Positions 1 to 63,396 of a stretch of DNA of 64,000 nucleotides are shown in pieces (position 1 is the first letter of the stretch; every line of letters starts with the position of its first letter). Made by a program: the position numbers and the translations under genes. The stretch covers positions 20,172,629-20,236,628 of the forward strand of contig NC_081391.1 in NCBI RefSeq assembly GCF_030684315.1, given 5' to 3'. The stretch comes from Stegostoma tigrinum (Eukaryota). Under the pieces are notes generated by a model. That model worked only from the letters and a program-made list of their open reading frames with translations. It was not told where the DNA came from and ran no database searches.

Positions 1-295
1 TCGCCCTGGCCAAAGATGTTTCACAGTTAGTGTCTGCGAAATGATTAGAACTTTTGGCAATCCTGGTGGGTTGATGCCAATCTATTATGTAAACACCTGA
101 CTTACACACTGTCCCCCACGCCCTTGCAGAGTGAGCCTGAAGCAGATTTGTCCCAGACCCTGAATGCGGTAACAAGGTCCTTCCTGATCTGTTACTACTT
201 AACATTGCAGCTGACAGAGACAGATGGGGATCAAGAGCAGAGGAAACATTCAACTGTGTTCTGAAGCGTCACCGTACTTGAAATGCTTACTCGGT

Positions 296-315
296 GTCTC
301 TCTCTCTCTCTCTCT
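296..315 (+). repeat. (TC)n microsatellite within a decayed short repeat; longer copy at 44933-44956
   Basis: Direct inspection. Confidence 0.85.
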
Positions 316-1457
316 ATGGATGCTAGCGGACTAGCTGAGTTTCTCCAATAATCTGTTTTGTCTCCAGGTTGTCAACATCCACAAATCTTCAGTCCCACTT
401 GCAACGCTTGGAAATGCCCGACAGATCCGAACAAAGACTGTAGTCACAAGCTAATGGACATTATCGTTAAATGTTGAATGCAGAAAGTCACCTATGAATT
501 ATACTGCAACTTTGCATTCATTTCAGCTACTTTGGAACTAGTCTAACGATGACCACAAAGCTGTTGTTGGAGAAAGCCCACCTTATCGACTCATGTCCTT
601 GACCGATAGAGTGAGGATATGGAGTTAGGCCAGTAAAAGGAAGCAGCTTGTATTCTACAAGAGAAACCCAGTACAAGAGAAACCTGGGTCCCCTCAGGCA
701 TGAATTGAGCAAAGCTCCGATTGAGATATTAAGCATTTCCCTTTGCTTTTATGACCAAAGGATCAGAGTGTGGAGGCTGATGCAGCGGCAAGAGTATCGC
801 ACACTGTGCCCCTAAGAATAACGTAATTCAAACTCTCCTGAGAGTAATCTGGAATTTTTTAAAATGAAAAAAAGGCACTCTTTCATCTCCCTCATTTAAA
901 CTCTTACTTGCTAAGGTTTCAGAAGCATGTGCTTAGCTCTGATTGTTGAGCAAGACATGCAAGCAGATTGTCCAGTTAGAGCCTTGTGGCTCAAGTTAAG
1001 GGATACCCTAGCCAGTTTATGGCAAAGGAGAGGTTTAACCTCCGGCACAGGTCATGCACTAGCATTCGTTAGGCTGGAATGCAGTGGCTACTGAATGAAA
1101 AGAAAGCTGAACCAATTAAAGGAAGAGACAGATGTGCAGTCAGGTTTTCAGGAGCTGAGAAAAAGGCAGATGCACTAGTGGTGTGGAAGGAAAACCTGCA
1201 GGATTGTATTAAATGGCAGACAGGAGTCAAGGAAGCTGATGGCCTACATTCAGACCCCTGCCTTGTACTTCACTGTAGCCACATCACGGGGGAGGGGGGG
1301 GGGGGCAGGAAGGTAAATGTTTGATGATCAGTCTAGGAATTAGTTACACAGGAGAACGTAGTTGAGTGAATATTTTATTTCCACATGCAGCAATAGAGAA
1401 ACCGATACAAATAATTCTGCTTTCATGTACAATAGTGAAGCAATTCCAAACTGCCAC

Positions 1458-3599
<2,142 letters not shown>

Positions 3600-3666
3600 C
3601 TTCACTATTCCTGCTCACTATCACCTAGACAACTCTAGCACTAATCCTTTGTACTACAATCTCTGG

Positions 3667-3791
3667 TATTTATACTCCTGGGACATTCTACGCTCAACGA
3701 GGGAATGACATCACCAATGATGACTGACATTCCCTGAAAGCCAATTCGGAATCTCCCATGAATTTAGCCCCACCTCTGCCCTCCCACCAAT
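3667..3791 (-). promoter_or_regulatory. F1 proximal promoter: TATA, TGACATCA (CRE/AP-1-like), three CCAAT boxes, kB-like site
   Basis: TATAAATA (minus) at 3667-3674. TGACATCA at 3706-3713. CCAAT (plus) at 3714, 3741 and 3787. GGGAGATTCC (minus) at 3748-3757. The layout recurs upstream of the other copies. Confidence 0.7.
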
Positions 3792-4169
3792 TAGAGAGAG
3801 GGTGTGGGTGTATGAGGCAGAGCTGATCAGAGGTGCAGATTGTTGTCAAGTCTGGATGGTTATTCTGTGATTGGATCAGCAGTCGGTCATTTAGAATCTC
3901 CAATCTGCCGGAACTCTCTATCGGGTCATGGTTAGTTTGAACAAAAAACTAGATTTGGATTTGGAAAGCTTTTCTTTTTAAACTAAGCTTGTTGTGACGA
4001 ACTGCGAGAGGTGCTCAATGAAGGAGAATCAGTTTCTGAGCATGTTCTGCTGGGATATTGGAGAGAAAGGTAGGAGATTGATGGTAGTTCCTAGAAATTT
4101 GTAACAGAAACAAACAGGACAAAGACAGGAAAGATGTTTCTGATGACCAATGCGCCCAGAACCAAGGGT

Positions 4170-4870
4170 CACTGTCTAAGGATATAGAGTAGTCTGTTTG
4201 GGATTGAGTTGAGGAGAAATGTCTTCAGCCAGACAGTGGGGAGTCTGTTGTATTCTGTGGGAAGGAAACAGTTGAGGCCAAAAGACTGAAGGTTTTGAAG
4301 AGTTAGATGTAGCTGATAGGGCTATGGGGATCAAAGGGTATGGAGAGAGAGTGTGAAGATGGTACTGAGTTAAGGGATTACCCATGATCATGTGGGATGC
4401 CAGAGCAGGCTGGAAAGGCTGTATCAAAATGGTTCATAATTTTGAACATTTCAATCAGGTCATCTTTTAATCTTCTCTGCTCCAAGGAGATAAGGCCAAT
4501 TTTTAAAATCTTTCCTGGTATCATTCCAGCAAATCTCCTTTGCACAGTGTCCAGGGCTTTAATGCCCTCCCTTACAAACAGTGCCCAGAATTGAACACAA
4601 TACTCTAATGCGGTCTGACCAATGGTGTGTAGTGGTGTAGCGTTACTTCTTTGCTTTTATACTCTCGGGCTCTCCTTAAAAACACAAGGTTCCTATAAGC
4701 CTTCTTCATGACTGTTTCATCTTGCCTGGCCACCTTCAGGGAATTGTAGTTTTAAATCCTGAGGGCTCTCTGCTCCTGTACTCACCTTGACGTTGTTCCA
4801 TTGAACCTGTATTATCTCTTCATGTCTCCATGTTTCTTCTACCAAAATGCATTTCTTGCATTTTTTTGTG
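4170..4870. mobile_element. Old CR1 fragments (plus 3' end ~4170-4420, then a minus fragment); copies at ~32490-33190 and ~48790-49490
   Basis: Similar to the 3' ends of the younger CR1 copies (GGGATCAAAGGGTATGG; AATTGAACACAATACTC). Confidence 0.55.
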
Positions 4871-4997
4871 TTGAAATTATAAAGTGATTGCCAACATCAA
4901 ATCTTACCCAATAAAAATCAAATGATCCTAATTCTGAAGTCTTCAACTGACCCCCCCCGCCCCCCCCGCCCCGTCTGTGTGTGTGTGTCCACTATAT

Positions 4998-6077
4998 GAT
5001 GCAAAGAGTAGTGATAAACGGGTCCCCTTCGGAATGGCAGGCAGTGACCAGTGGGGTACCACAAGGTTCGGTGCTGGGACCACAGCTGTTTACGATATAT
5101 ATTAATGATATAGACGAAGACATTAAAAGTAGTATTAGCAAATTTGCTGATGACACAAAGTTGGGTGGCAGTGTGTAATGTGAGGAGGATGTTATGAGAA
5201 CACAGGGTGACTTGAACAGACGAGGTGAGTGGACGGATGCATAGCAGACGCAGTTTAATGTGGATAAATGTGTGGTTATACACTTTGGTGGCAGGAACAG
5301 GAAGGCAGATTACTATCTCAATGGAGTCAAGTTAGGTAAAGGGCAAGTACAACGAGATCTAGGTGTTCTTGTACATCAGTCAATGAAAGTAAGCATGCAG
5401 GTACAGCAGGCAGTGAAGAAAGCTAATGGCATGCTTGCCTTCATAACAAGAGGAATTGAGTATAGGAGCAAAGAGGTCTTTTTGCAGCTGTACAGGGCCC
5501 TGGTGAGACCGCACCTGGAGTATTGTGTGCAGTTTTGGTCTCCAAATTTGAGGAAGGATAGTCTTGCTATTGAGGGAGTGCAGCGTAGGTTCACAAGGGC
5601 AATTCCCAGAATGGCGGGACTATCATATGTTAAAAGATTGGAGCGACTGGGCTTGTATACACTTGAGTTTAGAAGGATGAGAAGGAATCTGATTGAGGCG
5701 TATAAGATTATTAAGGGATTGGACACTCTGGAGGCAGGAAGCATGTTTCTGCTGATGGGTGAGTCCAGAACTAGTGGACACAGTTTAAACATCAGGGGAA
5801 GGCCATTTAGAACAGAGTTGAGGAAAAACGTCTTCACCCAGAGAGTGGTGGATATATGGAATGCTCTTCCCCAGAAGGCAGTGGAGGCCAAGTCTCTGGA
5901 TACTTACTAGAAAGAGATAGATAGAACTCTTAAAGGTAGTGGGATCAAGGGTTATGGGGATAAGGCTGGAACAGGATACTGATTGTGGATGATCAGCCAT
6001 GATCATAATGAATGGTGGTGCTGGCTCGAAGGGCCGAATGGCCTACTCCAGCACCTATTGTCTATTGTCTACTGTCT
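4998..6077 (+). mobile_element. 5'-truncated CR1-clade LINE (HER1-like), RT C-terminus and 3' UTR
   Basis: [18 protein letters not shown] and LVRPHLEYCVQFWSP motifs with in-frame stops. Ends in a (TATTGTC)n tail. The empty site is at ~33305. Confidence 0.93.
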
Positions 6078-7017
6078 GTCCCTTCTGTGAAGAGGCTGTT
6101 TCTGACATTATCCTGGACAGTTTAGCTTTAATTTGAAGATTCTATTTCCAATCCATACGCTCAGTCCTAGATGACCCATTGAGACGAAACAATTCCTCTC
6201 AATCTACCCTGTCAAATCCACTAATGCTCTTAAAACTTCCAAATACTGCCGTCTCTTAACCTTCCATACTGAGGGACTCAGGCAAGCTGCCATCATCATT
6301 TAACCAGCTCTTTATCTCTGAGTTGATTCTGGAAATTCTCTGCTGCACCATCTTTAGGCCCAACCTGCCAAAAATGATATCCCAGAGATGGTTGAACCAG
6401 AACTTGACAATTTCATAAAAAACCTCCACCCAGAGGTTTGCAAATCCCTTAGAGATCAGGACTGACATTGAATTAATTTCTTTGTTCAGTGTTTTTATAT
6501 CTCGTCTCTAGTTTCAATACATTTCTGTCCACTTGTCTCAGTTTCATTTTGATCATTAGTTTTGACAACCCAGCAGAAGATGTCCCCATTTCTAAAACAC
6601 TCTGACTCATCTTTCTTGGTCAGGAGTGGATAACTTCACACTTCCCCTTATTGAACTGTATCAGCCATTCTTCCCCACTCCATGGAAGTTTGAAACATTC
6701 TACTGTCATGATAAAGTGCCACTTGATGTAATGCCATCAGCAAATATTTGAATTGTGGCTGTCCATTTCTTCATCTGTAACATTTATAATCCAAGGAAAA
6801 GTTAAGGCCCCAGTTTCTCTCCTTGGGGAAAGTAATGACATCTTGCTTTCTCTTTTATTACCTCATGGGATGAAGGTGTTGTTGGCTGGCCCAGCATTTA
6901 TTGTACTTCCCTAATTATTATTGTCTTCTTGAATTGCTGTTGTCCATTTGGTGCAGGGAGATCCATAATGCCATTTTGGACAGAATTCCAGGATTCAGAT
7001 GGTATGACTGTAGATTG

Positions 7018-7232
7018 AGTTTTGCCTGATGAGCTTCATTGAGTATTTTGAAGAAGTGATGAAGAGCAATGATGAGGGCAGAGTGGTGGGCGTGATCTAC
7101 ATGGACTGCAATGAAGCGTTTGACAATGTTGCTCATAGTAAGCTGTTTAGCAAAGTGAGATCACATGGAATCCATGGAGAATTATCCATTTGGATACAGA
7201 AATGGCTCAAAGGTAGAAGGCAAAGGGTGCCG
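7018..7232 (+). mobile_element. Old CR1 RT fragment (copies at ~34255-34465 and ~51635-51850)
   Basis: IEYFEEVMKSNDEGRVVGVIYMDCNEAFDNVAHSKLFSKVRSHGIHGELSIWIQKWL. Confidence 0.75.
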
Positions 7233-7235
7233 TTA

Positions 7236-8110
7236 GAGGCAACAAAGTGCGGAGCTGGAGGAACATAGCAGGCCAGGCAGCATCAGAGGAGCAGGAAAGC
7301 TGTTGTTTCGGGTTGAGACCCTTCTACCGAAATTGGGAGGGGAGGGGAAGCTCAGAAATGAAGAGGAGGGGTGGGACTGGGAAGGTAGATGGGATGGTGA
7401 TGGGTGAGTGCAGATAGGGAGTAGTCAGGAATGGCCAGTGAGGTGGGGGGGATGCAGATAGGTGGGAGAGAAGATGGACAGGTCAAAGAGGTGGGGATGA
7501 GAGGGAGAGAGGGGATTGGTCATGGGGTGAGGAGATTTTGAAGTTAATAAGGTCCACATTTAGTGTCGTGGGCTGTAAGCTCCCAAGGCAGAATATGAGG
7601 TGCTTCTCTTCCAGTTTGAGGATGACATTGGTGTGATACTGGAGGATGCCCAAAATGGACAGGTCATCCAGGAATGGGAGCGGGAGGGAAGTTAAAACAT
7701 TTTGCGATTGGAAAACGTTGTTTTTTGTTGCACATTGAACACAGATGCTCTAGAAAAACTGACTCCCTCATGTAGCGGAGGCCACATTGGGTGCAGCCGA
7801 TACAACAGACCAACTTGAAACATGTGCAGGTTATCCCTGTCTGATGTCGAAGGTTTGTTTGTTTTTCTTTTGTTTTGAATGGAGACACGTGGGAGGCGGT
7901 CAGGTGTAGCTGTTCCTACAGTTGTAGGGAACCGGGCTGGGGTTAATGGCGAGTACAGAGTGGATGAGGGAGTGGCAGGGATACCAGCGGAGAGGTACTG
8001 GGGTGTCCATAGTAAGAGGGGCTATGCCTGCTTCTGTCAGTTATGTGGAACAGTCCCTCTTCTGCTGCTACACTGTCACTATCCCGTACCTCTTCCTTAC
8101 TCATAGATTG
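7236..8110. mobile_element. Decayed Penelope-like element: minus-strand endonuclease/terminal part followed by a plus-strand RT fragment (copies at ~34470-35330 and ~51855-52730)
   Basis: Homologous to 12630-13440. The plus strand gives a YVEQSLFCCYTVTIPYLFL RT-like remnant. Confidence 0.65.
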
Positions 8111-8317
8111 ACAGTAAATAGCCAGCTACATTGCTGTGTGGGTGGTGAGTCAGCTGTCAGCCAACTGCTTTCCTTCCCTGAAAGGGTTAGAAAAACGTAG
8201 GACTGCTGAGAGTTGGCCTTTCAGCAAATTAAGTGAAGTGTCTCTTTTCTCTTCCACTCTTTCCCCGTCCTTTCGATCTCCTCTCTTCCCCCCCTCCCTC
8301 CACCCCCTGCCCGAAGC

Positions 8318-8383
8318 CTGGATGCAATGCAGGGAACTCTGCAGAGAGAGAAGAAGGTGAACCAGAGTCTATTGGATCTCCAT
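8318..8383 (+). pseudogene. Inverted ferritin exon-3 relic
   Basis: Plus strand translates [22 protein letters not shown]. By hand count 55 of 66 nt match F1 exon 3. Confidence 0.85.
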
Positions 8384-9276
8384 GTCTGCAAATGTAGCTT
8401 TAATTGCACCAGCTGTCCCCAGCAGTTGATTGCTGGAGCGAGAACAGGAACTATGCCACGTTTGTCCCACAAGCTACAAGGTGGGCATTGAGGATAGGAG
8501 ACACTGTTACAGGAGAGAGCAGATTCCTCACTCAGTCTCCTACAGTGGAGACTTGTTAGAAAATCCAATTCCTTAGCTTGGGAAACTAGAACAGTGGTGT
8601 CTTGCTTGTTCAAAGAAGCATGCCAAAAAAATGCAATGCACGTGCCAGATGCTATTGCTGTTCCTTTTTTATTAACAAAGTATTTTTTTAATGCTTGGAT
8701 TCTGCTAACCAAGTTAAGTGAAGGTTACTAGCAAAACTGAGGTCCGGCAGCACCTGTGGATAGACTTCAGTTGAGTAGTCACCAGACTCAACCATTAATT
8801 GGTGTATCAACACGTGCAGAGTGCCACCTGCCCCCCTGACTCTAGCCGTTTGTATTGTGTTTGATCCCAGCTTTTAGGAAAGTTGGAGCATTGCTAGGGA
8901 CAGGGCACCAGTTAAGTGGCTAACAGTTAGAATGGAGCAATTTTGGTGAAGCTATTGACTGGAGACTGCTCTTACAGAACTGTCACCGTGAGCACTGCTT
9001 AAAAGCCAAAAGCTTAACAGTTTGATTTCCACAACAATTACTCATTTAAAAAAAATCTTTTGACTTTGGATTCAGAAACTGAACAAAAATTGCCAGGGCA
9101 AGCATTGATTCAATGCAGAGAGCAAAAAGCCAAAGCGATTTAATAATCAGGTAATAAGCAGCCAAATAAGTGTAGTCAGATACATGGGCAATGTTTTCAT
9201 TTTGTGCAGAGTGTGCAAAAAAAAAGTCATTCACTAGAACACCAGTGTACAACAAATGGAGTTGTTGAATCCTCAT

Positions 9277-10732
9277 TCAGCTCAGGCTGAGCCTGTCAAA
9301 CAGATACTCTCCTTTGCCCTTCTGAGGGGCTCCCAGTCTCTTCAGGTTGGTGATGTGATCTCCCAGCTTCTTGATCATCTTCACTTGCTCATCCAAGTAG
9401 TGCCTCTCCAGGAAGTCACAGCTGGAAGACAAGACAAGTTAGTGGAATCCATTGAAGACATTTGGAAGTGACCCTCAATTCAGATTTAACAAATCAATAC
9501 CATGTTGAGGGAGAGGGGCACTCTGCTGATGCGTTTGGACTGTTGTAGATTTAACAGTCTGCAGGAGGCAGTTATGAGACAATTGTATTCCCCCTCCCCC
9601 CAAGAGTACACAAACAGATCACTTTCAGGTTGGAAACATTCATCTTTCCTGGAATTTGAACGTCATCCTGGTAGTTTGTTGTTCGAAAGGCCATCAGCCC
9701 TACATGCTGAATTTAGCAGTGAAAGGCAAGGAAGCTTATTGGAGAGAAAGTGAGGAACTCACATGAGGGTCTGTGTGGCCAGAGGAGAGATTGTGCAGAT
9801 CCAGCAAACTCTGGTTCACATCCTTCTCCTTCTGCAGAGCTCCCTGCCTTGCCTCCAGATCATTGACCATGGTCAGTCTTCTGAAGCGGCAGCGTGGGGG
9901 TGGATGGTAAGAGACAAGACACATCACTTAAAATGCAAGAAACCAGTGAAAAAAGCAACAAGACCTCCATCTCATTAGGAGAGTGTACAACAGCTAAGAG
10001 ATTATATCCAAAGCATTAAAATGCTATAATATTCAGGGCTTAAAAAGCCTTCTTCAGGACAAAATGACATTTCATTAAACCCAATCTTGATGTCCTACAA
10101 GAGGAGCATGCACCCACATTCTGGAATGCCATCAGTTTCTCAGCTGTTCCCATTCCTTCGAGGAACAGTGCCATGAGAACTCAAAGTGACACAGGACAAC
10201 ATCTTCCCAGTCAAAAGTGAAAGGATTGTAAACAGGGAAACCCATTGGGGTTTGTTGTTAAAGATTCTTCTCTACCTGAAATGCTTCTTCAGTCAGGCCT
10301 GCAGGTTCTGGAAGGGAAAGCCTCCCTTGTAAATCACAACAAAAACCACACCATAATAGATTGAGGTGTAGTTTCTTGCCTTGTGAAGCAGGAGGGATCA
10401 TCTTCCTACAAGTTGGGTCTTGAATATTTCATACTTGACACAAAATATTAAGTATTAAAATAAAACCTCAACATTCCAAAAGGCCATATGGGTAGGGAAA
10501 ATGGCTCAGCTTCAGCAAGGAAACCTTCCAACACAGAACAGGATTCTCAGCTCTGGAGTGAACTAGCAAAGTTGATTAGTGAAGTATTGACAGCAAATAG
10601 AACTCAGGATTGTGATAGTGTTCCTCCCTCTGGGATGGAGGTCCAGGGTCGCATACGCTCTAGAGGTCAGACATATTATCTCTCAACAGATTAACACTCT
10701 TCAATAGAATAAATCCAATTACATTGTACAGA

Positions 10733-10812
<80 letters not shown>

Positions 10813-11093
10813 GACATCCCAGGTCATACATCAGGATCAAACCATTAAAAGATTATTCACTTCTCAAGGTCAGGGAAAGGCCACAGAAGATTCTAAAATA
10901 TGAATTGAATGATGCAGAGAGACCCTACACCCACAATACATTGAGGCCACAGCTTGAAATCTGAAATAAATCCAGAGAACACCACTGTCACCATGGAGAG
11001 GTAAACATGGGAGAAAGAAAGCACCAGGGTGATCTGCTTGTTAACAACATCCTCACAGGCCTTGTGATGGTTCTGCCACACTTGGGAGGGCAT
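9277..11093 (-). pseudogene. Ferritin pseudogene F2
   Basis: Exon 1 10992-11093 has the ferroxidase Glu27 equivalent changed to Val. Exon 2 ~10086-10225 is decayed with indels and a GT>AT donor. Exon 3 9763-9880 is 8 bp short. Exon 4 9277-9421 has a 2-bp deletion giving CTG TGA. Confidence 0.93.
10736..10808 (+). repeat. (CA)n microsatellite, ~36 units
   Basis: Direct inspection. Absent at the paralogous site ~55357. Confidence 0.97.
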
Positions 11094-11160
11094 CTTCACT
11101 ATTGCTGCTCACAATCACTTGGACAACTCTAGAACTGAGTCTCCCTCCCACAAGCTCTTG

Positions 11161-11320
11161 TATTTATACTCCAGAGACCATCCTGCACCAACCAGGGAAT
11201 GACATCACTAACAATGATTGACAATCTCTGACAGCCAATCAGGAATCTGCAAGAACCCAGTCACCAATGAACAGAGGAGGAGGAGAGTGGGGCAATGTGC
11301 TGAGACCCAGAGTCAATCAG
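11161..11320 (-). promoter_or_regulatory. F2 promoter (retained in pseudogene)
   Basis: TATAAATA at 11161-11168, followed by GGGAATGACATCA and CCAAT boxes. Confidence 0.55.
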
Positions 11321-11984
11321 AGATTTGGGCAACAGTCAGGTTGAGATTATTATTCTGTGATAACGAGAGCACTTCGCCTCTCAAACCTGTCCCCTAATTC
11401 AACTGGATCGGTGCGAGTCTGAGTCTTCATTTAATACCTTTGCCTGGGTTCTGCATCACATCATATTGCGAACTAGCACAGCTCAACAAATCAGTTTCGA
11501 AATGTCCAAGGGGCTTGCAGAATTTTGGGAGTGATACTGTAATGTTTGAGATTAAGCATCATCACTGATTACCATAGCTTTGATCTGAAGATTATTCCCC
11601 CTTTTCCAGGATTACTTCGCCACAGGAAACAGTACATTGTCTAACGGCACGATTAGATCCATTAATAATCCAAAGTACCTGGATAATATTCGTTCTCGAG
11701 TCTTCCACACTCTTGCAAGGACAAGGCTAGTTGATGTAAACTGTATTCATAACGTAACCAGCTTGGGGCTGAGAAAATGCTGGTGAATCTGTGCTAAGGT
11801 CCCTCAAATAACCCTGTCAGAGCTCAGCACAGCGCTCCAAATGTGCTCTGATGCCACTTCTATGCTGTTGTATTACAACCCATGCTGTTTTGTTGTCCAG
11901 CTGGCTTGGGGGGAAACTGAGCACGTTCTGGCCTTTTTAATTCGGCTTTCATATCTGCCCACTGCCACACGGTTATTACGGTGC

Positions 11985-12589
11985 TGATGGCGACCATTCA
12001 GCCCATCGTATCCACCACCAACTCGCTGAGCGTTTCACCTCTTGCCATTCTCCTGCACTGTCCCTGTAATCTCCATGTTATTCCCTTTCAGATATCAGTC
12101 CTATTCCCTATTGAATGCGTGAATTGAACCTGCCTCCAACACACTCTCGGACTATACATTTCACACCCTATCCACTCGCTGTGTTGGAAGGTTTTTATTT
12201 TCGCAGATCACTTCAGCTTCTTTTGCCAATTTTAAACCTGTGCCTTCTTGCTCCTGACCCTTTCACAAATGGGAACATCATGCCACTGTTTGTTCTTTCT
12301 GGATCCGAATTTGCGCCGTTTGCTTTCCAGAGAGAAAAGTCCCAGCTTCTCCAATATATCCTCACACCTGAAATTCCTCATTCCTGTTGCCATTCCAGGA
12401 AGCCTCCTCTGCACTGTCTCCAGTACATCCACACTTTCCTTCAGTGTGATGTGCAGAACGAGACACAGTATTCCTGTTGGGGTCAAACTTAAGCAGGTTC
12501 AGCATAATCACCTTGCTCTTGTACACTTGTCCCTACTAATAAAGCTCAGGGCGCTGCGAGCTTTATTAACCATTCGCTTGAACAGTCCT
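11985..12589 (-). mobile_element. Old CR1 3' fragment (copies at ~37480-38082 and ~56540-57143)
   Basis: Minus-strand VLETVQRRLPGM...LEKLGLFSLE motif. Confidence 0.7.
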
Positions 12590-13965
12590 CAGAGATAATG
12601 GGAACTGCAGATGCTGGAGAATCCGAGAAAACAAAGTGTGGAGCTGGATGAACACAGCAGGTCAAGCAGCATCTTAGGAGCACAAAAGCTGACGTTTTGG
12701 GCCTAGACCCTTCATCAGCAAAGGGGGTTTGGGGAAAGAATTCTGAAATAAATAGGGAGAGGGGTAGGCGGACCGAAGATGGATGGAGGAGAAGGTAGGT
12801 GGAGAGGAGAGTATGGGTGGGGAGGTAGGGAGGGGATAGGTCAGTCCGGGGAGGATGGACAGGTCAAAGGGGCCAGGTGAGGTTAGTAGGTAGGAAATGG
12901 AGGTGTGGCTTGAGGTGGGAGGAGGGTCTAGGTGAGAGGAAGAACAGGTTAAGGAGGCTGGGATGAGCTGGGCTGGTTTTGGGATGCAGTGGGAGGAGCG
13001 GAGATTTTGAAGCTGGTGAAAGCCACATTGATACCATTGGGCTGCAGAGTTCCCAAGTGGAATATGAGTTGCTGTTCCTGCAACCTATGGGTGGCATCAT
13101 TATGGCACTGCAGGAGGACCAGGATGGACATGTTGTCACAGGAACGGCGGGGAGAGTTGAAATGGTGCACGACTGGGAGGTGCAGTTGTTTACTGCAAAC
13201 TGAGCGTCGGTGTTCTGCAAAGCGGTCCCCAAGCCTCCGCTGTGTTTCCCCAATGTAGAGGGAGCCACGCCGTGTACAGCAGATGTAGTGTACCACATTG
13301 GCGGATGTGCAGGTGAACATCTGTTTGATGTGGAAAGTCATCTTGGGGCCTGGGATGGGGGTGAGGGAGGAGGTGTGGGGGCAGGTGTAGCACTTCCTGC
13401 GGTTGTAGCAGAAAGTGCTGGGTGTAGTGGGTTTGGATGGGAGTGTGGAGCGAACAAGGACATCGCGGAGAGAATGGTCTCTCCGAAAGCAGACAATGGT
13501 GGGATAGAAAAATGTCTTTGGTGGTGGAGATGGATTGTAGATGGCAGAAGTGTCGGAGGACGATGCATTATATCCAGAGGCTAGTGGGGTGGTATGTGAG
13601 GACTAGGGGGATCCTCTTGGGGAAGTTATTGCGAGGGTAGTGTGTGAGGGATGAGTTGTGGGAAATGCGGGAGACACGATTGAGGACATTCTCGCCCACT
13701 GCAAAGGGGGAAGTGGCGGTCCTGTAAGAACGAGGACATCTGGGATGTGCAGGAGTGGAATGCCTCTTCTTGGAGCAGATGGGGGAAGAGGCAAAGGAAT
13801 TGGGAATAGGGCATGGAGTTTTTGCAGGAAGGTGGGTTGGAGGAGGCGTATCACAGGTAGCTGTGGGAGTTGGTGGGCTCGAAATGGACATCGGTTTGTA
13901 GGTGGTTGCCTGCGATGGAGACAGAAAGTCCAGGAAGGTGAGGGATGTGTTGGAGATGGTCCTTC
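12590..13965 (-). mobile_element. Penelope-like retroelement, 3' part (RT end, GIY-YIG endonuclease, terminal repeat with hammerhead motif)
   Basis: ORF 12949-13341 reads FTCTSANVVHYICCTRRGSLYIGETQRRLGDRFAEH...LGTLQPNGIN. Upstream IPLVLTYHP and PYSQFL motifs are frameshifted. Confidence 0.88.
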
Positions 13966-15680
13966 CACCTTCAATGCTGTAATGCAAATACACCATGCAG
14001 TTCACTCACTCCTGCACCCTCTTTAGAAATGCACCTTTTATTTTGTATTGTCTCTACATGCTTTTCCCACCATTTTTTCTGTTTTGAACTTCATCTGCCA
14101 CTTGCTAGCCGATTCCACCAATACGTCTGTGCCCTTTTGAGGTTCTACACCATTGTCCTCACTCGAAGTTTCTTATCATGTACAAACTCTGAAATTGCAT
14201 CCTTTATACCAGGATATAAGTCATTACTTTACTTTTGTAAAGCCTGGCTCCTCCCCATAACCCGTGGAACTCCACGACAAACCATCCCCCTCGTCCAAAG
14301 AGCATCCATTAGCATCACTTATGTTTCCAGTAACGCAGCCAACTCCGTATCCCTGTCACTGCGCTGCCATTGATTACAGGGGCTTGAACATAGTTCACAA
14401 ATCTAACGTGTGGCACTGTATTATATGTCTTTAGGAAGCCCACGTTGACCACACGAACAACAGCCCTCTCGCCTAACTCGTCAAAATACTTGTGCTAGAT
14501 AGTTAAAAGTGATTTTCCTTTTGAGGAGATCTGGCATGGATCTCAAAAAAAAAAGATTCATATTCATCCATATAACTATTATGCAATTTTCTACTCATCT
14601 CCATTACTTCCTGTCTTCCACTCCCCAACATCACTCATGGAAATGACAGGCATCTACTCCATCACTTATCCCATTTGGAAACTGAATGAAAAGCTGATGC
14701 AAAAGGACAATGCATCTAGAAGTTGTTGCCTCTTCTCAGTGTTCATAATTTATTGCAGCTACTAATTTCCAATTTCAAAACAATTTCTCACACAGATTTA
14801 AAATATCCACTCCCCATACAAGTCCCCTAACCGGCCATTTCCACATACATGCTGTATGTGTTGCTGGGCTTCTATTCAAGCAGAGCTTCACAATGTTGGA
14901 GCTGTAAGAGTTTGCAAATAGGACCTCTCCTCAGCAATTTCTGTACCCTGTTCCCCTACTGAGAGCTTCACTTCAGACAAACAAGAGGTAAAGAAGTGAC
15001 CCAAACAATGATTGGCTGCTGTGTATATAAAGCTATTGGGAGGCATGGAAGGGTAGGAGGAAGTAAGTAGTAGTTGCGGGGGGAGAGGTGGTGGGGTACA
15101 GAGTTGAAGAAGAAAGGCAGAAAAGCTTGGAATCCAACTCTGCCTCCTTTTATTATTCATCTGCTAAACCTCAGTCCCCAAAAAAGCAGAACAAATCCAC
15201 AAGCTGCAGCTGGGAGGTTGGGGCAGCCCTTGCCGTCTGCAAACTTAGAAAGAGTTCACTTGACTCTTGCTGCTGTTGGAAGAAGGGCAAATGAGGACAA
15301 AGGAAGCACCTAGTGTCTAAAGTCATCCAGAGAGGAAAGTCATGTCACTAAGTGGTACACACCTGGAAGGCTAATGTAACACTAAAAAGGAAAGGGGAAA
15401 CACCTCATTTACAAATTTGCCATGAAAAATGTATGTTCCATAGGTACATAAAATTTATGCTACCTTTGGAGGAAGATATCGAAGTGAGTGAAATTTCTAT
15501 TGTGGATTTTTTCAGTCAAGTTTCCTGGTTAGCTGTTGGTAATTTAGTTAGCTTAAAAAACAAAGATCCAAAATCCAGTTCCACAAAGACTTGTATTTCC
15601 ATTTGGAATGGCAGACAGAAAAAGGCAAAGTGGTCATCAGAATTAGGTCAGGAATGGATAAATTTCTTCCATAACCCCAT

Positions 15681-18795
<3,115 letters not shown>

Positions 18796-18862
18796 CTTCA
18801 CTATTCCTGCTCACAAGCACCAAGAAAACTCTAGAACTAAGCCTCTCAGCCACAAGCTCTTG

Positions 18863-19010
18863 TATTTAACCTCCTGGAACATCCTGCACTCAACCAGGGA
18901 ATGACATCACCAATGATGATTGACAATCCCTGATAGCCAATCAGGCATCTCCATGAGTGCAGGAGCCAATGAAGGGCATGGGGTGGAATGAGATCCCCAG
19001 AGCCAATCAG
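18863..19010 (-). promoter_or_regulatory. F3 promoter with degenerate TATA
   Basis: GTTAAATA at the TATA position. TGACATCACCAAT and further CCAAT boxes are present. Confidence 0.6.
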
Positions 19011-19935
19011 AGCTTTGGAACTGAGGCATATTTGGAACATTCAGTGATTGTCGCTGACGAACAGGAGGTGGATGTTCTGCCCTGTCCTGCCACCCAATTG
19101 TGTCAAGCCTGGTCTGTTGCTTCCTTACGCTCTTCCTACATTGGTCCTGTGTTCCTGTCACACCATGAACGAACAAACATCCAACTGTCTCACATCTGAG
19201 CAGTTTATTTGTTCCCAATATTTCTGGGAAAAAGATTGCAGAGTTCTGAATCCTTTTCCTGAGGAAATGATTCCTGGCACCTGCCCTGGATGGCCACAGC
19301 ATAATGATGGCATTGTACTCCTTGGTCACGCTAAAATAATTTCTCTCCCTCTGGCTCCTCAAACCCGATTGTTATTTTCCAAACTTCAATTGTAGTCAGC
19401 CCTAAATCTTCATTACCCAAGTGAATGCAAGTACACTCTTTGCAAATTGTCCTCACAATTTAAGCCTGTTAGTCCTGGGATCGTTCTGGTGAATGCACAC
19501 TGTAGCGCGACGATGGTGTTGTTGCTGTGCTAGTCACAGAGAGGCTCGGATTAACACCACGAGGGCAATAAGTGCTGACCTTAGTCAGCAATGCCCTCGT
19601 CCCATGAATGAACTGAAGAAAACTATCATTGATTGCCTTGGAAATCAATCTGGTTCACTGATATCTTTCAGGGAAGGAAATGGACTCCACGGCCTGTATA
19701 TGACTACAGACCCACAGCAATATCACTGACTCCTAACTTGCCTCTGAGATGGTCAGAAACCTTTTAATTCAAGGGCAGTGAGAGAGGAGCGACGGGGCTT
19801 GGTCTTGCCAGTGACATTCTCCTCCATGAAATCATTTCAAAAACACTTGCTCCAAGGCCGATATATCAGAACTGAATACTGTTCTCCAGGTGGGGTTCAC
19901 CCTACACTTTCCACCAGTGTAGCACAACCTTTCTG

Positions 19936-22837: not shown

Positions 22838-25003
<2,166 letters not shown>

Positions 25004-25068
25004 CTTCACACCTACTTACAAAAAGCAAACCCAAACAACAGCCTAACCCCACCTCCCATGAGCTCTAG

Positions 25069-25220
25069 TATTTATGTGAATGGGAATCTGCATTCCAACA
25101 GGAAGTTATCACCAATAGTGCTTGGCTATTAGGGATTTCCAATCAGCAGGCTCCCATGAATACAGGCATTAATTAGGGAGAGGTGCTGGGGGGAGCTATG
25201 TACAAAGCAGAGCCAATCGG
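25069..25220 (-). promoter_or_regulatory. F4 promoter (divergent)
   Basis: CATAAATA at the TATA position. Three CCAAT boxes are retained although the surrounding sequence is divergent. Confidence 0.5.
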
Positions 25221-25389
25221 AGCAGTGGGAAACCAGCAGGTTTCAACAGTTTGGGCCATGGGAACAGGAGGAGACCATTCAGCCCCTCAAACCTATTTCA
25301 GTATTTAATTAGATCTTGGCTGGTCTGCTTCTCAGTTCCATATAAACTACCTTCTTCCATAAAGCGGAATCATAGAATCCCATCACAAA

Positions 25390-29612: not shown

Positions 29613-31930
<2,318 letters not shown>

Positions 31931-31997
31931 CTTCACTATTCCTGCTCACTATCACCTAGACAGCTCTCATATCAAGTCTTTGTACCACAAGCTCCAG

Positions 31998-32122
31998 TAT
32001 TTATACTCCTGGGACATCCTATGTTCAAGGAGGGAATGACATCACCAATGATGACTGACATTCCCTGAAAGCCAATTAGGAATCTCCCATGAATTTCGCC
32101 CCGCCTCTGCCCTCCCACCAAT
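31998..32122 (-). promoter_or_regulatory. F5 promoter
   Basis: TATAAATA, TGACATCA, three CCAAT boxes, GGGAGATTCC at 32079-32088. Confidence 0.7.
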
Positions 32123-35100
32123 TAGAGAGAGGGTGTGGGTGTATTCGGCAGAGCTGATCAGAGGTGCAGATTGTTGTCAAGTCTGGATGGTTATTCTGTG
32201 ATTGGATCAGCAGTCAGTCATTTAGAATCTCCAATCTGCCGGAACTCTCTATCGGGTCATGGTTAGTTTGAACAGAAAACTAGATTTGGATTTGGAAAGC
32301 CTTTCTTTTAAAACTAAGCTTGTTGTGACCAACTGCAGGAGGTGCTCAATGAAGGAGAATCAGTTTCTGCTGGGATATTGGAGAGAAAGGTCGGAGATTG
32401 GTGGTAGTTCCTAGAAATTTGTAACAGAAACAAACAGGACAAAGACAGGAAGGATGTTTCTGATGACCAATGCGCCCAGAACCAAGGGTCACTGTCTAAG
32501 GATATAGAGTAGTCTGTTTGGGATTGAGATGAGGAGAAATGTCTTCAGCCAGACAGTGGGGAGTCTGTTGTATTCTCTGGGACAAGAAACAGTTGAGGCC
32601 AAAAGACTGAAGGTTTTGAAGAGTTAGATGTAGCTGATCGGGCTATGGGGATCAAAGGGTATGGAGAGAGAGTGTGAAGATGGTACTGAGTTAAGGGATT
32701 ACCCATGATCATATGGGATGCCAGAGCAGGCTGGAAAGGCTGTATCAAAATGGTTCATAATTTTGAACATTTCAATCAGGTCATCTTTTAATCGTCTCTG
32801 CTCCAAGGAGATAAGGCCAATTTTTAAAATCTTTCCTGGTATCATTCCAGCAAATCTCCTTTGCACAGTGTCCAGGGCTTTAATGCCCTCCCTTACAAAC
32901 AGTGCCCAGAATTGAACACAATGCTCTAATGTGGTCTGACCAATGGTGTGTAGTGGTGAAGCATTACTTCTTTGTTTTTATAATCTCGGGCTCTCCTTAA
33001 AAACACAAGATTCCTATAAGCCTTCTTCATGACTGTTTCATCTTGCCTGGCCACCTTCAGGGAATTGTAGTTTTAAATCCTGAGGGCTCTCTGCTCCTGT
33101 ACTCACCTTGACGTTGTTCCATTGAACCTGTATTATCTCTTCATGTCTCCATGTTTCTTCGACCAAAATGCATTTCTTGCATTTTTTTGTGTTGAAATTA
33201 TAAAGTGATTGCCAACATCAAATCTTACCCAATAAAAATCAAGAGATGCTAATTTTGAAGTCTTCAACTGACACCCCACGTGTGTGTGTGTGTGTGTGTC
33301 CACTATCCACTATCCCTTCTGTGAAGAAGCTGTTTCTGACATTATCCTGGGCAGTTTAGCACTAATTTGAAGATTCTATATCCGTTCCATACCTTAAGTC
33401 CTAGAAGACCCATTGAGAAGAAACAATTCCTCTGAATCTACCCTGTCAAGTCCATTAATGGTCTTAAAACTTTCAATTCCTGCCATCTCTTAACCTTCCA
33501 TACTGAGGGACTCGGGCAAGCTGCCATCATCATTTAACCAGCTCTTTATCTCTGAGTTGATTCTGGAAATTATCGGCTGCACCATCTTCAGGCCCAACCT
33601 GCCGAAAATGAGATCTCCAGGGATGGTTGAACCAGAACTTGACAATTTCATAAAAAACTCCACCCAGAGGTGTTCAAATCCCTTTGAGATCAGGACTGAC
33701 ATTGAATTAATTTCTTTGTTCAGTGTTTTTATATCTCGTCTCTCGTTTCAATACATTTCTGTCCACTTGTCTCAGTTTCATTTTGATCATTAGTTTTGAC
33801 AACCCAGCAGAAGATGTCCCCATTTCTAAAACACTCTGGCTCACCTTTCTTGGTCAGGAGTGGATAACTTCGCACTTCCCCTTATTGAAGTGTATCAGCC
33901 ATTCTTCCCCACTCCATGGAAGTTTGAAACATTCCACTGCCATGATAAAGTGCCACTTGATGTAATGCCAGCAGCAAATATTTGAATTGTGGCAGTCCAT
34001 TTCTTCATCTCGAACATTTATAATCCAAGGAAAATTTAAGGCCCCAGTTTCTCTCCTTGGGGAACGTAATCACATCTTGCTTTTTCTTTTATTACCTCAT
34101 GGGATGAAGGTTTTGTTGGCTGGCCCAGCATTTATTGCACTTCCCTAATTATTATTGTCTTCTTGAATTGCTGTTGTCCATTTGGTGCAGGGAGATCCAT
34201 AATGCCATTTTGGACAGAATTCCAGGATTCAGATGGTATGACTGTAGATTGAGTTTTGCCTCATGAGCTTCATTGAGTATTTTGAAGAAGTGATGAAGAG
34301 CAATGATGAGGGCAGAGTGGTGGGCGTGATCTACATGGACTGCAATGAAGCGTTTGACAATGTTGCTCATAGTAAGCTGTTTAGCAAAGTGAGATCACAT
34401 GGAATCCATGGAGAATGATCCATTTGGATACAGAAATGGCTCAAAGGTGGAAGGCACAGGGTGCCGGCAGAGGCAACAAAGTGTGGAGCTGGAGGAACAC
34501 AGCAGCCCAGGCAGCATCAGAGGAGCAGGAAAGCTGATGTTTCAGGCTGAGACCCTTCAGAAATTGGGAGGGGGAAGGGGAAGCTCAGAAATAAGGAGGA
34601 GGGGTGGGACTGGGGATGGTAGGTGGGATGGTGATGGGTGAGTGCAGGTAGGGAGTGGTCAGTGAGGTGGGAGAGAAGATGAACATGAACAGGTCAAGGA
34701 GGTGGGGATTGGTCATGGGATGAGGAGACTTTGAAGTTAATAAGGTTAATAAGGTCTACATTTAGTGTCTTGGGCTATAAGCTCCCAAGGCAGAATATGA
34801 GGTGCTACTCCTCTAGTTTGAGGATGACATTGGTGTGATACTGGAGGATGCCCAAGATGGACAGGTCAGCCATGGAGTGGGAGGTGGGGTGGAAGTTAAA
34901 ACATTTTGTGATTGGAAAGTGTTGTTGTTTGTTGCTCATTGAGTGCAGATGCTCTAGAGAAACTGTCTCCCTCATGGTGGCTACATTGGGTGCAGCCGAT
35001 ACAATAGACCAACTTGAAACAGGTGCAGGTGATCTGTGTCTGATGCCGAAGGTTTGTTAGTTTTTATTTTGAATGGAGACACGGGGTGGATGTGGTGGTG

Positions 35101-35488
35101 GGGCGAGGGGGTCAGGGAATGGTGTAGCTGTTCCTGCAGTTGCAGGGAACAGGGCTGGGGTTAATGGGGAGTACAGAGTGGATGAGAGAGTGGCAGGGAT
35201 ACCAGCATAGAGGTACTGGGGTGTCCACAGTAAGAGGGGCTATGCCTGCTTCTGTCGGATATGTGGAACAGTCCCTCTTCTGCTGCTCCACTGGCACTAT
35301 CCCCTACCTTTTCCTTACTCAAAGATTGAAAGTAAATAGCCAGCTACATTGCTGTGTGGGTGGTGAGTCAGCTGTCGGCCAACTGCTTTCCTTCCCTGAA
35401 AGGGTTAGAAAAGTTTAGAACTGCTGAGAGTTGGTCTTTCTGCAAATTAAGTGGTGTCTCTTCTACTCTGACCCGCCCCAACCGAAGC

Positions 35489-35551
35489 CGAGATGCTATG
35501 AAGGGAACTCTGCAGATAAAGAAGGTGAACCAGAGTCTCCCGGATCCCCTT
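35489..35551 (+). pseudogene. Inverted ferritin exon-3 relic (more decayed copy)
   Basis: Translates RDAMKGTLQIKKVNQSLPDPL, in the same flanking context as 8318-8383. Confidence 0.75.
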
Positions 35552-36489
35552 GTCTACAAATGTAGCTTTAATTGCACCAGCTGTCCTCAGCAGTTGATTG
35601 CTGGAGCAAGAACAGGGACTATGCCACGTTTGTCCCACACGCGACAAGGTGGGCATTGAGGATAGGAGACACTGTTACAGGAGAGAGCAGATTCCTCACT
35701 CAGTCTCCTACAGTGGAGACTTGTTAGAAAATCCAATTCCTTAGCTTGGGAAACTAGAACAGTGGTGTATTGCTTGCTCAAAGAAGCATGGAGAAAAAGC
35801 AACTTGCATGCCAGATGCTGTTGCTGTTACAGTCTTATTAAGGAATATTTTGAATGTTTAGATTCTACCAGTAAAGTTAACAGAATATTACTGGCAAAAC
35901 TGAGGCCTGGCAGCACCTGGAGACAGACTTCAGTTGTGGAGTCACCAGGCTCAACCATTAACTGGTTTAATCAACACACATCCAGAGTTTCACCTGCACC
36001 TACCCCGCCACCCCGCAAACCCCAGCAATTTCTATTTTGTTTGATCCCAGCTTTTAGGAAAGTTGGAGCATTGCTCGGGACAGGGCACCAGTTAAGTGGC
36101 TAACAGTTAGACAGAGTGGAGCAATTTTGGTGAAGCTATTCACGAGAGACTACTCTTACAGAATTGTCACAGTGAGGACAAGACAGATAGTGAGCATTGC
36201 CTACAAGCCAAAAGCTTAACAGTTGTGATTTCCGCAACAATTACTCACTTCAAAAATTCTTCTGACTCTGGATTCAGAAGCTGAACAAAAATAGCCAGGG
36301 CAAGCATTGATTCAATGCAGAGAGCAAAAAGCCGAAGGGACTGAATAATCAGATAATAAACAGCCAAATAAATGAAGCAGTTACTCAAAGTAGTCAGATA
36401 CATGGGCAATGTTTTCATTGACTTTTTTGTGCACTCTGCACTTGCACTAGAACACCAGTGTGCAACAGATGGAGTTGTTGAATCCCCGT

Positions 36490-36634
36490 TCAGCTCAGGC
36501 TGAGCCTCTCAAACAGATACTCTCCTTTGCCCTTCTGAGGGGCTCCCAGTCTCTTCAGGTTGGTGATGTGATCTCCCAGCTTCTTGATCATCTTCACTTG
36601 CTCATCCAAGTAGTGCCTCTCCAGGAAGTCACAG
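36490..36634 (-). pseudogene. Ferritin relic F6 (exon 4 only; paralog of F2)
   Basis: Same 2-bp deletion and [10 protein letters not shown] motif as F2 exon 4. Exons 1-3 are missing, replaced by a retroelement fragment at 36949-37380. Confidence 0.9.
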
Positions 36635-36948
36635 CTGGAAGACAAGACAAGTTAGTTGAGTCCATTGAAGACATTTGGAAGTGACCCTCAATTCAGATTT
36701 AACAAATCACCGCCATGTTGAGGGAGAGGGGCACTCTGGTGATTCATTTGGACTGTTGTAGATTTAACAGTCTGCAGGAGGCAGTTATGAGACAATTGTA
36801 TTCCCCCTCCCCCCAGGAGTAGACAAACAGATCACTTTCAGGTTAGAAACATTCATCTTTCCTGTAATTTGAAAGTCATCCTGGTAGTTTGTTGCTCTGA
36901 AGGCCATCAGCCCTACTTGCTGAATTTAGCAGTGGATGGCAAGGAAGC

Positions 36949-37380
36949 ACACAACCAGCCCAGCTCTTCCCCTCCACCCACTGCATCCCAAAACCAGTCC
37001 AACCTGTCTCTGTCTCCCTAACCTGTTCTTCCTCTCACCCATCCCTTCCTCCCACCCCAAGCCGCACCTCCATCTCCTACCTACCAACCTCATCCCACCT
37101 CCTTGACCTGTCCATCTACCCTGGACTGACCTATCCCCTCCCCACATCCCCACCTATACTCTCCTCTCCACCTATCTTCTTTTCTCTCCATCTTCGGTCC
37201 GCCTCCCCCTCTCTCCCTATTTATTCCAGAACCCTCCCCCCATCCCCCTCTCTGATGAAGGGTCCAGGCCCGAAACGTCAGCTTTTGTGCTCCTGAGATG
37301 CTGCTGGGCCTGCTGTGTTCATCCAGCCTCACATTTTATTATCTTGGATTCTGCAGCATCTGCAGTTCCCATTATCACTG
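36949..37380 (+). mobile_element. Young 3' fragment of the Penelope-like element
   Basis: Reverse complement of ~12590-13000. Ends CCCATTATCACTG. Confidence 0.88.
37252..37282 (+). ncRNA. Minimal hammerhead ribozyme motif (Penelope type)
   Basis: CTGATGA-A-GGGTCCAGGCCC-GAAAC-GTC: both core boxes, stem II, palindromic ACGT stem III and a GUC cleavage triplet. Confidence 0.65.
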
Positions 37381-38082: not shown

Positions 38083-39428
38083 CAGAGATAATGGGAACTG
38101 CAGGTGCTGGAGAATCTGAGATAACAAAGTGTAGAGCTGGATGAACACAGCAGGTCATGCAGCATTTGGGCCTAGACCCTTCATCAGAAAAGGGAGATGG
38201 GGAGAGAATTCTGAAATAAATAGGGAGAGGGGTAGGCGGACTGAAGAAGAATAGAGGAGAAGGTAGGTGGAGAGGAAAGTATGGGTGGGGAGGGAGGGAG
38301 GGGATAGGTCAGTCCGGGGAGGATGGACAGGTCAAAGGGGCCAGGTGAGGTTAGTAGGTAGGAAATGGAGGTGTGGCTTGAGGTAGGAGGAGGGGCTCGG
38401 TGAGAGGAAGAACAGGTTATGGAGGCTGGGACGAGCTGGGCTGGTTTTGGGATGCAGTGGGAGGAGGGGAGATTTTGAAGCTGGTCAAATCCACATTGAT
38501 ACCATTGGGCTGCAGAGTTCCCAAGCGGAATATGAGTTGCTGTTCCTGCAACCTATGGGTGGCATCATTATGGCACTGCAGGAGGACCAGGATGGACATG
38601 TTGTCTCAGGAATGGGAGGGGGGAGTTGAAATGGTGCACGACTGGGAGGTGCAGTTGTTTACTGCGATCTGAGCGTAGGTGTTCTGCAAAGTGATCCCAA
38701 GCCTCTGCTGCATTTCCCCAATGTAGCGGAAGCCACACCGTGTACAGCAGATGCAGTATACCACATTGGCGGATGTGCAGGTGAACATCTCTTTGGTGTG
38801 GAAAGTCATCTTGGGGCCTGGGATCGGGGTAAGGGAGGAGGTGTGGGGGCAGGTGCAGCACTTCCTGCAGTTGTAGCAGAAAGTGCTGGGTGTGGTGGGT
38901 TTGGACGGGAGTGTGGAGCAGACAAGGACGTCGCAGAGAGAATGGTCTCTCCGAAAGCAGACAATGGTGGGGATAGAAAAATGTCTTTGGTGGTGGAGTT
39001 AGATTGTAGATGGCAGAAGTTTCGGAGGACGATGCGTTATATCCAGAGGTTAGTGGGGTGGTATGTGAGGACTAGGGGATCCTCTCGGGGAAGTTATTGC
39101 GAGGGTGGTGTGTGAGGGATGAGTTGTGGGAAATGCGGGAGACACGATTAAGGACATTCTCGCCCACTGCAAGGGGGAAGTGGCGGTCCTGTAAGAACGA
39201 GGACATCTGGGATGTGCAGGAGTGGTATGCCTCTCCTTGGAGGAGATGGGGCAGAGGCAAAGGAATTGGGAATAGGGCATGGAGTTTTTGCAGGAAGGTG
39301 GGTCGGTTGAGGCGTATTACAGGTAGCTGTGGGAGTCGGTGGGCTCGAAATGGACATCGGTTTGTAGGTGGTTGCCTGCGATGGAGACAGAAAGTCCAGG
39401 AAGGTGAGGGATGTGTTGGAGATGGTCC
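38083..39428 (-). mobile_element. Penelope-like retroelement (duplicate)
   Basis: Same motifs and insertion site as 12590-13965. Confidence 0.87.
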
Positions 39429-43345: not shown

Positions 43346-43413
43346 CTTCACTACTCCTGCTCACTATCACCTCAACACCTCCAGAACTGAACTCCTTTCC
43401 TACGAACTCTTTT

Positions 43414-43545
43414 CTTTATACTCCTGGGTCATCCTGCAATCAACCAGGGAATGACACCACCAATGATGACAGCCAATGAGGAATTGGCATGCATCCAGGC
43501 ACCAATGAGGGGAATGGGGTGGAGTGAGATACTCAGAGCCAATCA
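43414..43545 (-). promoter_or_regulatory. F7 promoter
   Basis: TATAAAG at 43414-43420 and four CCAAT boxes. Confidence 0.6.
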
Positions 43546-46094: not shown

Positions 46095-48228
<2,134 letters not shown>

Positions 48229-48295
48229 CTTCACTATTCCTGCTCACTATCACCTAGACAACTCTAGCACTAATCCTTTGTACTACAATCTCTGG

Positions 48296-48420
48296 TATTT
48301 ATACTCCTGGGACATTCTACGCTCAACGAGGGAATGACATCACCAATGATGACTGACATTCCCTGAAAGCCAATTAGGAATCTCCCATGAATTTAGCCCC
48401 GCCTCTGCCCTCCCACCAAT
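48296..48420 (-). promoter_or_regulatory. F8 promoter
   Basis: Same motifs as F1 and F5. GGGAGATTCC at 48377-48386. Confidence 0.7.
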
Positions 48421-52933: not shown

Positions 52934-52996
52934 CTGGATGCAATGCAGGGAACTCTGCAGAGAGAGAAGGTGAACCAGAGTCTATTGGATCTCCAT
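52934..52996 (+). pseudogene. Inverted ferritin exon-3 relic
   Basis: Translates [21 protein letters not shown]. Tandem-unit copy of 8318-8383. Confidence 0.85.
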
Positions 52997-60215: not shown

Positions 60216-63182
<2,967 letters not shown>

Positions 63183-63249
63183 CTTCACTATTCCTGCTCA
63201 CTTTCACCTGGGCAACTCCAGAACTAAGCCTCTCAGCCACAAGCTCTTG

Positions 63250-63396
63250 GATTTAACCTCCTGGAACATCCTGCACTCAACCAGGGAATGACATCACCAA
63301 TGATGATTGACAATCCCTGATAGCCAATCAGGCATCTCCATGAGTGCAGGAGCCAATGAAGGGCATGGGGTGGAATGAGATCCCCAGAGCCAATCA
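63250..63396 (-). promoter_or_regulatory. F10 promoter, TATA further degraded
   Basis: GTTAAATC at the TATA position. TGACATCACCAAT and CCAAT boxes are kept. Confidence 0.55.

Follow-up and report, generated by a model that had tools for sequence, protein, structure and literature searches.

The window, the whole 64-kb stretch of DNA analyzed here, contains nine ferritin genes (F1–F9), all on the minus strand and each comprising four coding exons, as defined by self-comparison and exon mapping. Exon mapping places their ATGs at 3599, 11093, 18795, 25003, 31930, 43345, 48228, 55647, and 63182, and the coding exons measure 102, 147, 126, and 147 nt. The F1 gene is built from coding exon 1 (3498–3599), exon 2 (2453–2599), exon 3 (1853–1978), and exon 4 up to the stop (1458–1604), which completes a 173-aa ferritin; an AATAAA lies 78 nt past the stop. 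This architecture of four exons and three introns, encoding about 175 aa, is that of a vertebrate cytosolic ferritin.

Five copies (F1, F3, F5, F7, and F9) are intact, with an open 173-aa frame and GT-AG introns. F3 (15681–18870) starts from the TATA-like GTTAAATA, F5 occupies 29613–32005, F7 (46095–48303) is a 98% duplicate of F1, and F9 (60216–63257) is a 99% duplicate of F3 with only 818 nt of upstream DNA inside the window. The other four copies are broken. F2 (9277–11168, TATA to stop) is a pseudogene with several indels in exons 2–4, and its duplicate F8 (53889–55722) is likewise a pseudogene with several indels. F4 (22838–25076) has a 1-nt insertion in exon 2, has lost the exon 3 acceptor, and possesses the most divergent leader of all. 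F6 (41112–43420) is likely broken; its frame is open and the exon 3 donor is AT, not GT. At the 3′ ends, AATAAA occurs at +77/78 in F1, F5, and F7 and is absent within 160 nt after the stop in F3, F6, and F9; F3 and F9 have AATACA at +83. The 3′ UTRs have diverged between copies far more than the leaders.

Self-comparison revealed that positions 1–19613 are repeated at 44637–64000, about 44.6 kb further on, with 98% identity. F1/F7, F2/F8, and F3/F9 are therefore pairs, and the array contains six distinct gene types. Such a repeat may reflect either recent segmental duplication or a pair of haplotypes left uncollapsed. A more ancient duplication of 88% identity matches 1846–9735 to 30174–36948, and 36968–37380 is an inverted copy of the adjoining DNA. 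The window also contains a CR1-like LINE reverse-transcriptase tail at 5245–5910 and 49863–50528; the best named matches of the frame at 5245–5910 are ray proteins (86% Hypanus, 74% Mobula, 72% Leucoraja), which by this measure makes a ray the likely host. Another repeated element, possibly a Penelope-like retroelement, lies at 12864–13602, 38568–39115, and 57417–58146. Pfam analysis of three non-ferritin frames returned one sub-threshold GIY-YIG match (E 8e-4), located in the single copy of this repeat that was scanned.

The F1–F9 protein of 173 aa is 52–73% identical to the control ferritins (see below): 65–73% to the fish H controls, 69–70% to the M control L006, and 52–60% to the L controls, the H, M, and L labels being our own reading. 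It aligns end to end with the cytosolic controls and has no N-terminal extension, signal peptide, or insert. The seven positions that we take to be the ferroxidase ligands (E24, Y31, E58, E59, H62, E104, and Q138) are all kept in the six open frames. The H and M controls also keep all seven, whereas four of them are changed in the two L-type controls. Retention of the full set suggests that the protein most likely still oxidizes and stores iron. The first-pass annotation had proposed an iron-independent role for the family; the conserved ligands leave that proposal unsupported, and what is likely to be independent of iron is only the synthesis of the protein. At what we assume to be the acidic nucleation site, E54 and E61 are kept and residue 57 is His, as in the H controls. 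In an 11-row tree with a long L branch, built without an outgroup or shark rows and with the truncated L002 left out, the copies fall outside the three-row fish H group (99/97). The Arg that separates the ferroxidase Glu pair from the His (residue 60) is replaced by Trp in F3 and F5 and by Gln in F6. In addition, F1 carries Cys at residue 26, and F5 carries Ser at residue 29. Residue 19 is Lys in all open frames and in control L003, versus Arg in most controls. In human H, the corresponding Arg forms part of the contact with NCOA4, the ferritinophagy receptor, and turnover of the window ferritins might differ as a result.

Each gene is preceded by a compact promoter. On the minus strand at F1, the TATA box TATAAATA (3674–3667) is followed by 67 nt and then the ATG (A at 3599), so that its first base is 75 nt ahead of the ATG. 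The distance from the start of the TATA-like octamer to the ATG is 75 nt in eight copies and 73 nt in F4 (gaps of 67 and 65 nt). An exact TATAAA is present in six copies (F1, F2, F5, F6, F7, and F8); the same position reads GTTAAAT in F3 and F9, which are intact yet lack the exact motif, and CATAAAT in F4. The first-pass annotation had placed a TATA about 68 bp before the ATG in every copy; the spacing holds throughout, and the exact box is confined to those six. An initiator-like site at 3638–3644 (minus strand) in F1 puts the predicted start at the A at 3642, 32 nt past the first TATA base. The predicted 5′ UTR is thus 43 nt (3600–3642, minus strand), in agreement with the roughly 40 nt estimated earlier. 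A pyrimidine-A initiator-like site lies at −43 in eight copies and at −41 in F4, with the sequence TCAGTT in F2, F6, and F8 and TTAGT in F1, F3, F7, and F9.

The F1 promoter (3714–3904, minus strand) contains five CCAAT/ATTGG boxes and a CRE/ATF-like TGATGTCA at −114. Across the nine promoters, the 285-nt segments above TATA contain 40 CCAAT/ATTGG boxes versus 7.2 expected, a count inflated by the relatedness of the copies, with five to six boxes in F1, F3, F5, F6, F7, and F9 and two to three in F2, F4, and F8. All eight minus-strand TGATTGG sequences of the window fall inside ferritin promoters. Inverted CCAAT boxes, or Y-boxes, mark oocyte promoters. The F4 promoter and leader (24884–25304) are T-rich, and the leader is 56% identical to that of F1; the TATA spacing, the initiator, and three CCAAT boxes are retained. 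That the most divergent copy has the same promoter layout indicates that the short-leader design is older than the recent copies. The F5 leader, alone among the nine, contains an out-of-frame upstream ATG at 31968–31970 (−40), 3 nt past the predicted start.

F1 was compared with contigs, presumably derived from RNA, of a related species (runs X1–X4, of which X2 and X3 belong to one study). Matching contigs are present in all four runs, and they cross each of the three introns where predicted, supporting exons 2 and 3 as mapped; exon 1 is spliced to exon 2 in the contigs of three runs. In X2 and X3, one contig covers all exons from 4 to 1 and continues for 26 nt into the leader, to 3625, so that 3600–3625 is covered and joined to exon 1, with five differences across exon 1 and the leader. 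These two contigs end some 28 nt upstream of the ATG, where two letters without a match adjoin a weak YAG at −25, and a splice at this YAG may occur in the related species. The X1 contig ends at 3611 in adapter, and no exon 1 piece is among those listed for X4. Coverage of 3626–4086 is almost nil, and the contig ends cannot mark the transcription start. Loose ends of X1–X4 at 2501–2591 indicate, by hand translation, that the related species has another ferritin, which is more divergent and H-like.

With four of nine copies broken, the array might be regarded as a birth-and-death cluster under weak selection and without a special role: a redundant paralogue would have lost its iron-responsive element (IRE) by chance, and unequal crossing-over would make the number of copies drift. 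Drift also predicts broken copies, and it would accommodate the recent 44.6-kb duplication, which may instead represent uncollapsed haplotypes, as well as the odd substitutions in intact copies (Trp at 60 in F3 and F5, Cys at 26 in F1). The pN/pS values over 15 pairs range from 0.20 to 0.77; 13 are under 0.5, and the three highest (0.48–0.77) lean toward relaxed constraint. However, the ferroxidase ligands and promoter boxes are kept in the intact copies and eroded in the pseudogenes, the leader and exons are conserved and spliced in another species, and shark ferritin clusters are reported to have been conserved over 250 million years or longer (10.1101/2024.09.09.611499). We consider drift without a role to be very unlikely.

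An IRE is defined by a C-bulge, a 5-bp stem, and a CAGWGH loop in a cap-near 5′ UTR, as described in PMC2896125 and PMC4112806, and IRPs repress ferritin translation by binding to this cap-near element (PMC4112806). Such a structure was found in none of F1–F9. Rfam cmscan of the whole 64-kb window (E ≤ 10) returned nine weak matches, none of them to an IRE family. Canonical IRE cores were absent from the coding strand of the whole window in both a stricter rule scan and a second scan that followed the SIREs rules for two canonical loops (PMC2896125), with any loop permitted in the leaders. Since 0–3 canonical cores are expected by chance (10 Markov samples), the zero count represents absence and not significant depletion. 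The CAGTG pentamer is missing between TATA and ATG in all nine copies, and no IRE was found in the 2.7–9.2 kb spacers above F1–F8 (eight of the nine genes) or in the 818 nt above F9. The first-pass annotation had reported that no copy has a CAGTGN-loop hairpin from TATA to ATG and that all copies appear to lack an IRE; the first observation is borne out, and the second now extends to the full 64 kb.

The positive controls were ten loci retrieved with an IRE motif. Rfam IRE_I matched all ten, seven of them above the gathering score; the stricter scan recovered nine and the SIREs-rule scan ten. Thus the Rfam/Infernal and SIREs-style scans upstream of the ATGs, which had been suggested as a check, recovered all ten control hairpins and detected no IRE in the array. 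As the controls were chosen by IRE motif, these figures gauge the sensitivity of the tools on canonical IREs only. The any-loop scan detected a marginal stem in two of the nine leaders (F3 and F5), with a loop unlike that of an IRE. A relaxed-loop scan, which admitted loop variants, gave six weak matches within 3 kb upstream or in genes; none is in a leader and none is common to unrelated copies, and they were attributed to chance. A degenerate IRE with TAGTGA as the loop was also considered for the leader and was rejected because the upper stem is absent.

The control loci illustrate how much leader an IRE normally occupies. In L001, a fish M-type ferritin by its exon 1, TATA is followed by 71 nt, the IRE loop, 160 nt, and the ATG; the distance from IRE loop to ATG is 164–256 nt in six other ferritin controls and 85 nt in two. 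In the window genes, the whole stretch from TATA to ATG is 75 nt, which leaves no room for an IRE leader of the control type. Five window promoters aligned with L001 showed no clear homology past exon 1, and deletion end-points therefore cannot be placed. An Rfam mir-692 match was noted inside the coding region of the L-type control L005 (259–367).

Could the mRNA nevertheless carry an IRE or another IRP site, either supplied by an upstream start or a non-coding exon beyond the window, or arising from a non-canonical fold of the short leader? The transcription start is predicted, the related-species contigs end near the weak YAG at −25 (found in F1, F5, F7, and F9), the upstream DNA of F9 is only 818 nt, and some IRP targets are bound without a recognizable IRE (PMC2896125). 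Salmon M1–M3 and both H forms are all described as carrying IREs (PMC4117605). On the other hand, a complete core promoter is present at each gene, and folding of the leaders is weak (−5.3 to −8.1 kcal/mol), without a hairpin common to them. Candidate splice acceptors in the leader have 2–7 pyrimidines of 12, versus 8–12 at 15 real acceptors. Because no array spacer contains an IRE, a donor exon would need to lie beyond F9 and be spliced across other genes. We give a hidden IRP site very little credence, and the F1–F9 leader is very likely free of an IRE in vivo, as far as its sequence can tell. Four broken copies and three near-identical pairs mean that the IRE-less leader is one inherited state and not nine independent cases.

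Taken together, the data are best explained by an IRE-free tandem ferritin array with a TATA/initiator/CCAAT promoter, in which transcription and the number of genes would determine output, most likely in the service of ovary stocking; on balance, we favor this reading. In the proposed mechanism, the predicted 43-nt, unstructured leader offers no IRP site, so that ferritin translation would likely escape repression by IRPs and be insensitive to iron. Output would track promoter activity and the number of intact genes, and the product would still oxidize and store iron. The part of the leader that bore the IRE would have been lost once, in an ancestor and before amplification, because all copies share the leader. 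Loss of the IRE would let extra copies raise the protein level, whereas in low iron a gene with an IRE would be kept repressed by IRP. Escape from IRP control, with regulation by transcription and copy number, had been put forward in the first-pass annotation. We infer the same, and the absence of an IRE, the conserved promoter, and the poor acceptors in the leader make it well supported, with the transcription start and the lack of IRP binding both as predicted from sequence. IRE control need not be lost organism-wide, since sharks retain separate FTH1a and FTL genes.

The same IRE-free dosage design could instead serve a general antioxidant or anti-ferroptosis defense across many tissues, with stress or inflammation acting on the promoter to induce the genes. 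The expansions of fthl27 in snailfish and of FTH1b in sharks have been proposed to work in this way; fthl27 is reported to be broadly expressed and to lower ROS (PMC10746142), and expression in fin and blood is described for some of the FTH1b copies of sharks, in a tissue sample that did not include ovary (PMC13214024). In the window, TGATGTCA at −114 recurs in seven of the nine promoters, an NF-κB-like site is present in three and MRE-like sites in two, and the related-species contigs match in all four runs. Against this, no ARE-, AP-1-, or HRE-like motif was found in the 420 nt upstream of any of the nine copies, and the largest shark ferritin cluster is described as ovary-specific (10.1101/2024.09.09.611499). 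We regard the antioxidant alternative as unlikely.

Returning to ovary stocking, the reasons lie in that ovary-specific shark cluster, which comes from work on the Greenland shark, in the abundance of ferritin transcripts reported for vertebrate ovaries (PMC1488847), and in the IRE-free yolk ferritin of snails. By analogy with these systems, the ovary may be the main site of array expression, a proposal that we put at slightly short of even. The 3′ 200 nt of the five intact copies lack any CPE-like element and so offer no support for a stored maternal mRNA. Among the roles suggested earlier, oocyte loading thus has the best outside support and antioxidant defense has some; for immune iron-withholding and erythrocyte loading, no support was found. 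More tentatively, and rather doubtfully as a whole, the shark and ray expansion, which has been linked to longevity and ferroptosis, may represent an ancient, IRE-free, ferroxidase-active branch in which loss of the IRE leader made amplification useful and a Y-box/CCAAT oocyte promoter came to provide an iron store for large, yolky eggs.

If correct, this reading would define a third, constitutively translated class of cytosolic ferritin in vertebrates, beside the IRE-controlled H and L/M classes. Textbooks use the ferritin IRE as their example of translational control, and the element is regarded as a constant attribute of cytosolic ferritins in vertebrates; a family that has kept its introns and its catalytic site yet does without an IRE would show that this control can be dropped. 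It would also supply a missing step for claims made from shark genomes, in that IRE-free copies would raise ferritin by dosage and IRE-bearing ones would be held down. The ideas on longevity and ferroptosis and on the ovary would become testable.

The window genes resemble the teleost M ferritins, such as salmon M1–M3 described in PMC4117605, in having four exons, three introns, ferroxidase ligands, and multiple copies. They differ from salmon M and from controls L001 and L006, all of which have an IRE, in that their leader is about 160 nt shorter and IRE-free. The closest counterparts are the FTH1b clusters of cartilaginous fishes. In sharks, FTH1a and FTL are described as lying on one chromosome, separate from the tandem FTH1b clusters, with 59 FTH1b copies in the Greenland shark and more copies in sharks than in rays (PMC13214024). 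Another account describes shark ferritin clusters of more than 100 copies, shared with the white shark (bioRxiv 10.1101/2024.09.09.611499). The window array likewise is a four-exon tandem array with broken copies among intact ones, set apart from H and L; nine tandem copies lie within 64 kb, and the LINE relatives in rays and sharks point indirectly to a cartilaginous-fish host. Compared with FTH1b by description, the array probably belongs to these published chondrichthyan clusters. IREs or UTRs are not mentioned in the main texts of PMC13214024 and 10.1101/2024.09.09.611499 or in five supplementary files of the former, and a literature search, made largely among open-access papers, found nothing on the IRE status of shark or ray ferritins.

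Tandem amplification of a ferritin proposed to act by dosage is shared with the hadal snailfish, which has 14 mostly tandem, widely expressed fthl27 copies and in which overexpression lowers ROS (PMC10746142). Unlike the window genes, fthl27 belongs to a teleost and is broadly expressed, and the available text of that paper nowhere mentions IREs.

Ferritins made outside IRP control are known elsewhere, and the window genes would share this property with FTMT, snail yolk ferritin, sponge ferritins, and Fthl17, of which the yolk form and Fthl17 are also germline-linked. To our knowledge, mouse Fthl17 has no IRE. Its six genes lie at one locus (PMC7760355), and FTHL17 is reported to lack ferroxidase activity (PMC7760355, PMC5312872). 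FTMT, which is outside IRP control, is described as intronless, with a targeting peptide and without a TATA/CCAAT promoter (PMC7760355). The snail yolk ferritin has no IRE and is secreted, with a signal peptide and a 42-aa insert (PMC10799875), and many invertebrate ferritins, including atypical sponge ferritins, are reported to be without an IRE (PMC8395497). Unlike the retrogene-type FTMT and Fthl17, the window genes keep their introns, a TATA/CCAAT promoter, and the ferroxidase ligands, and unlike the snail yolk ferritin their proteins have neither a signal peptide nor the 42-aa insert. The array itself is thus probably known, as are IRE-free ferritins; what is probably new is the combination of a missing IRE and a short-leader promoter in an intron-bearing, ferroxidase-intact vertebrate family.
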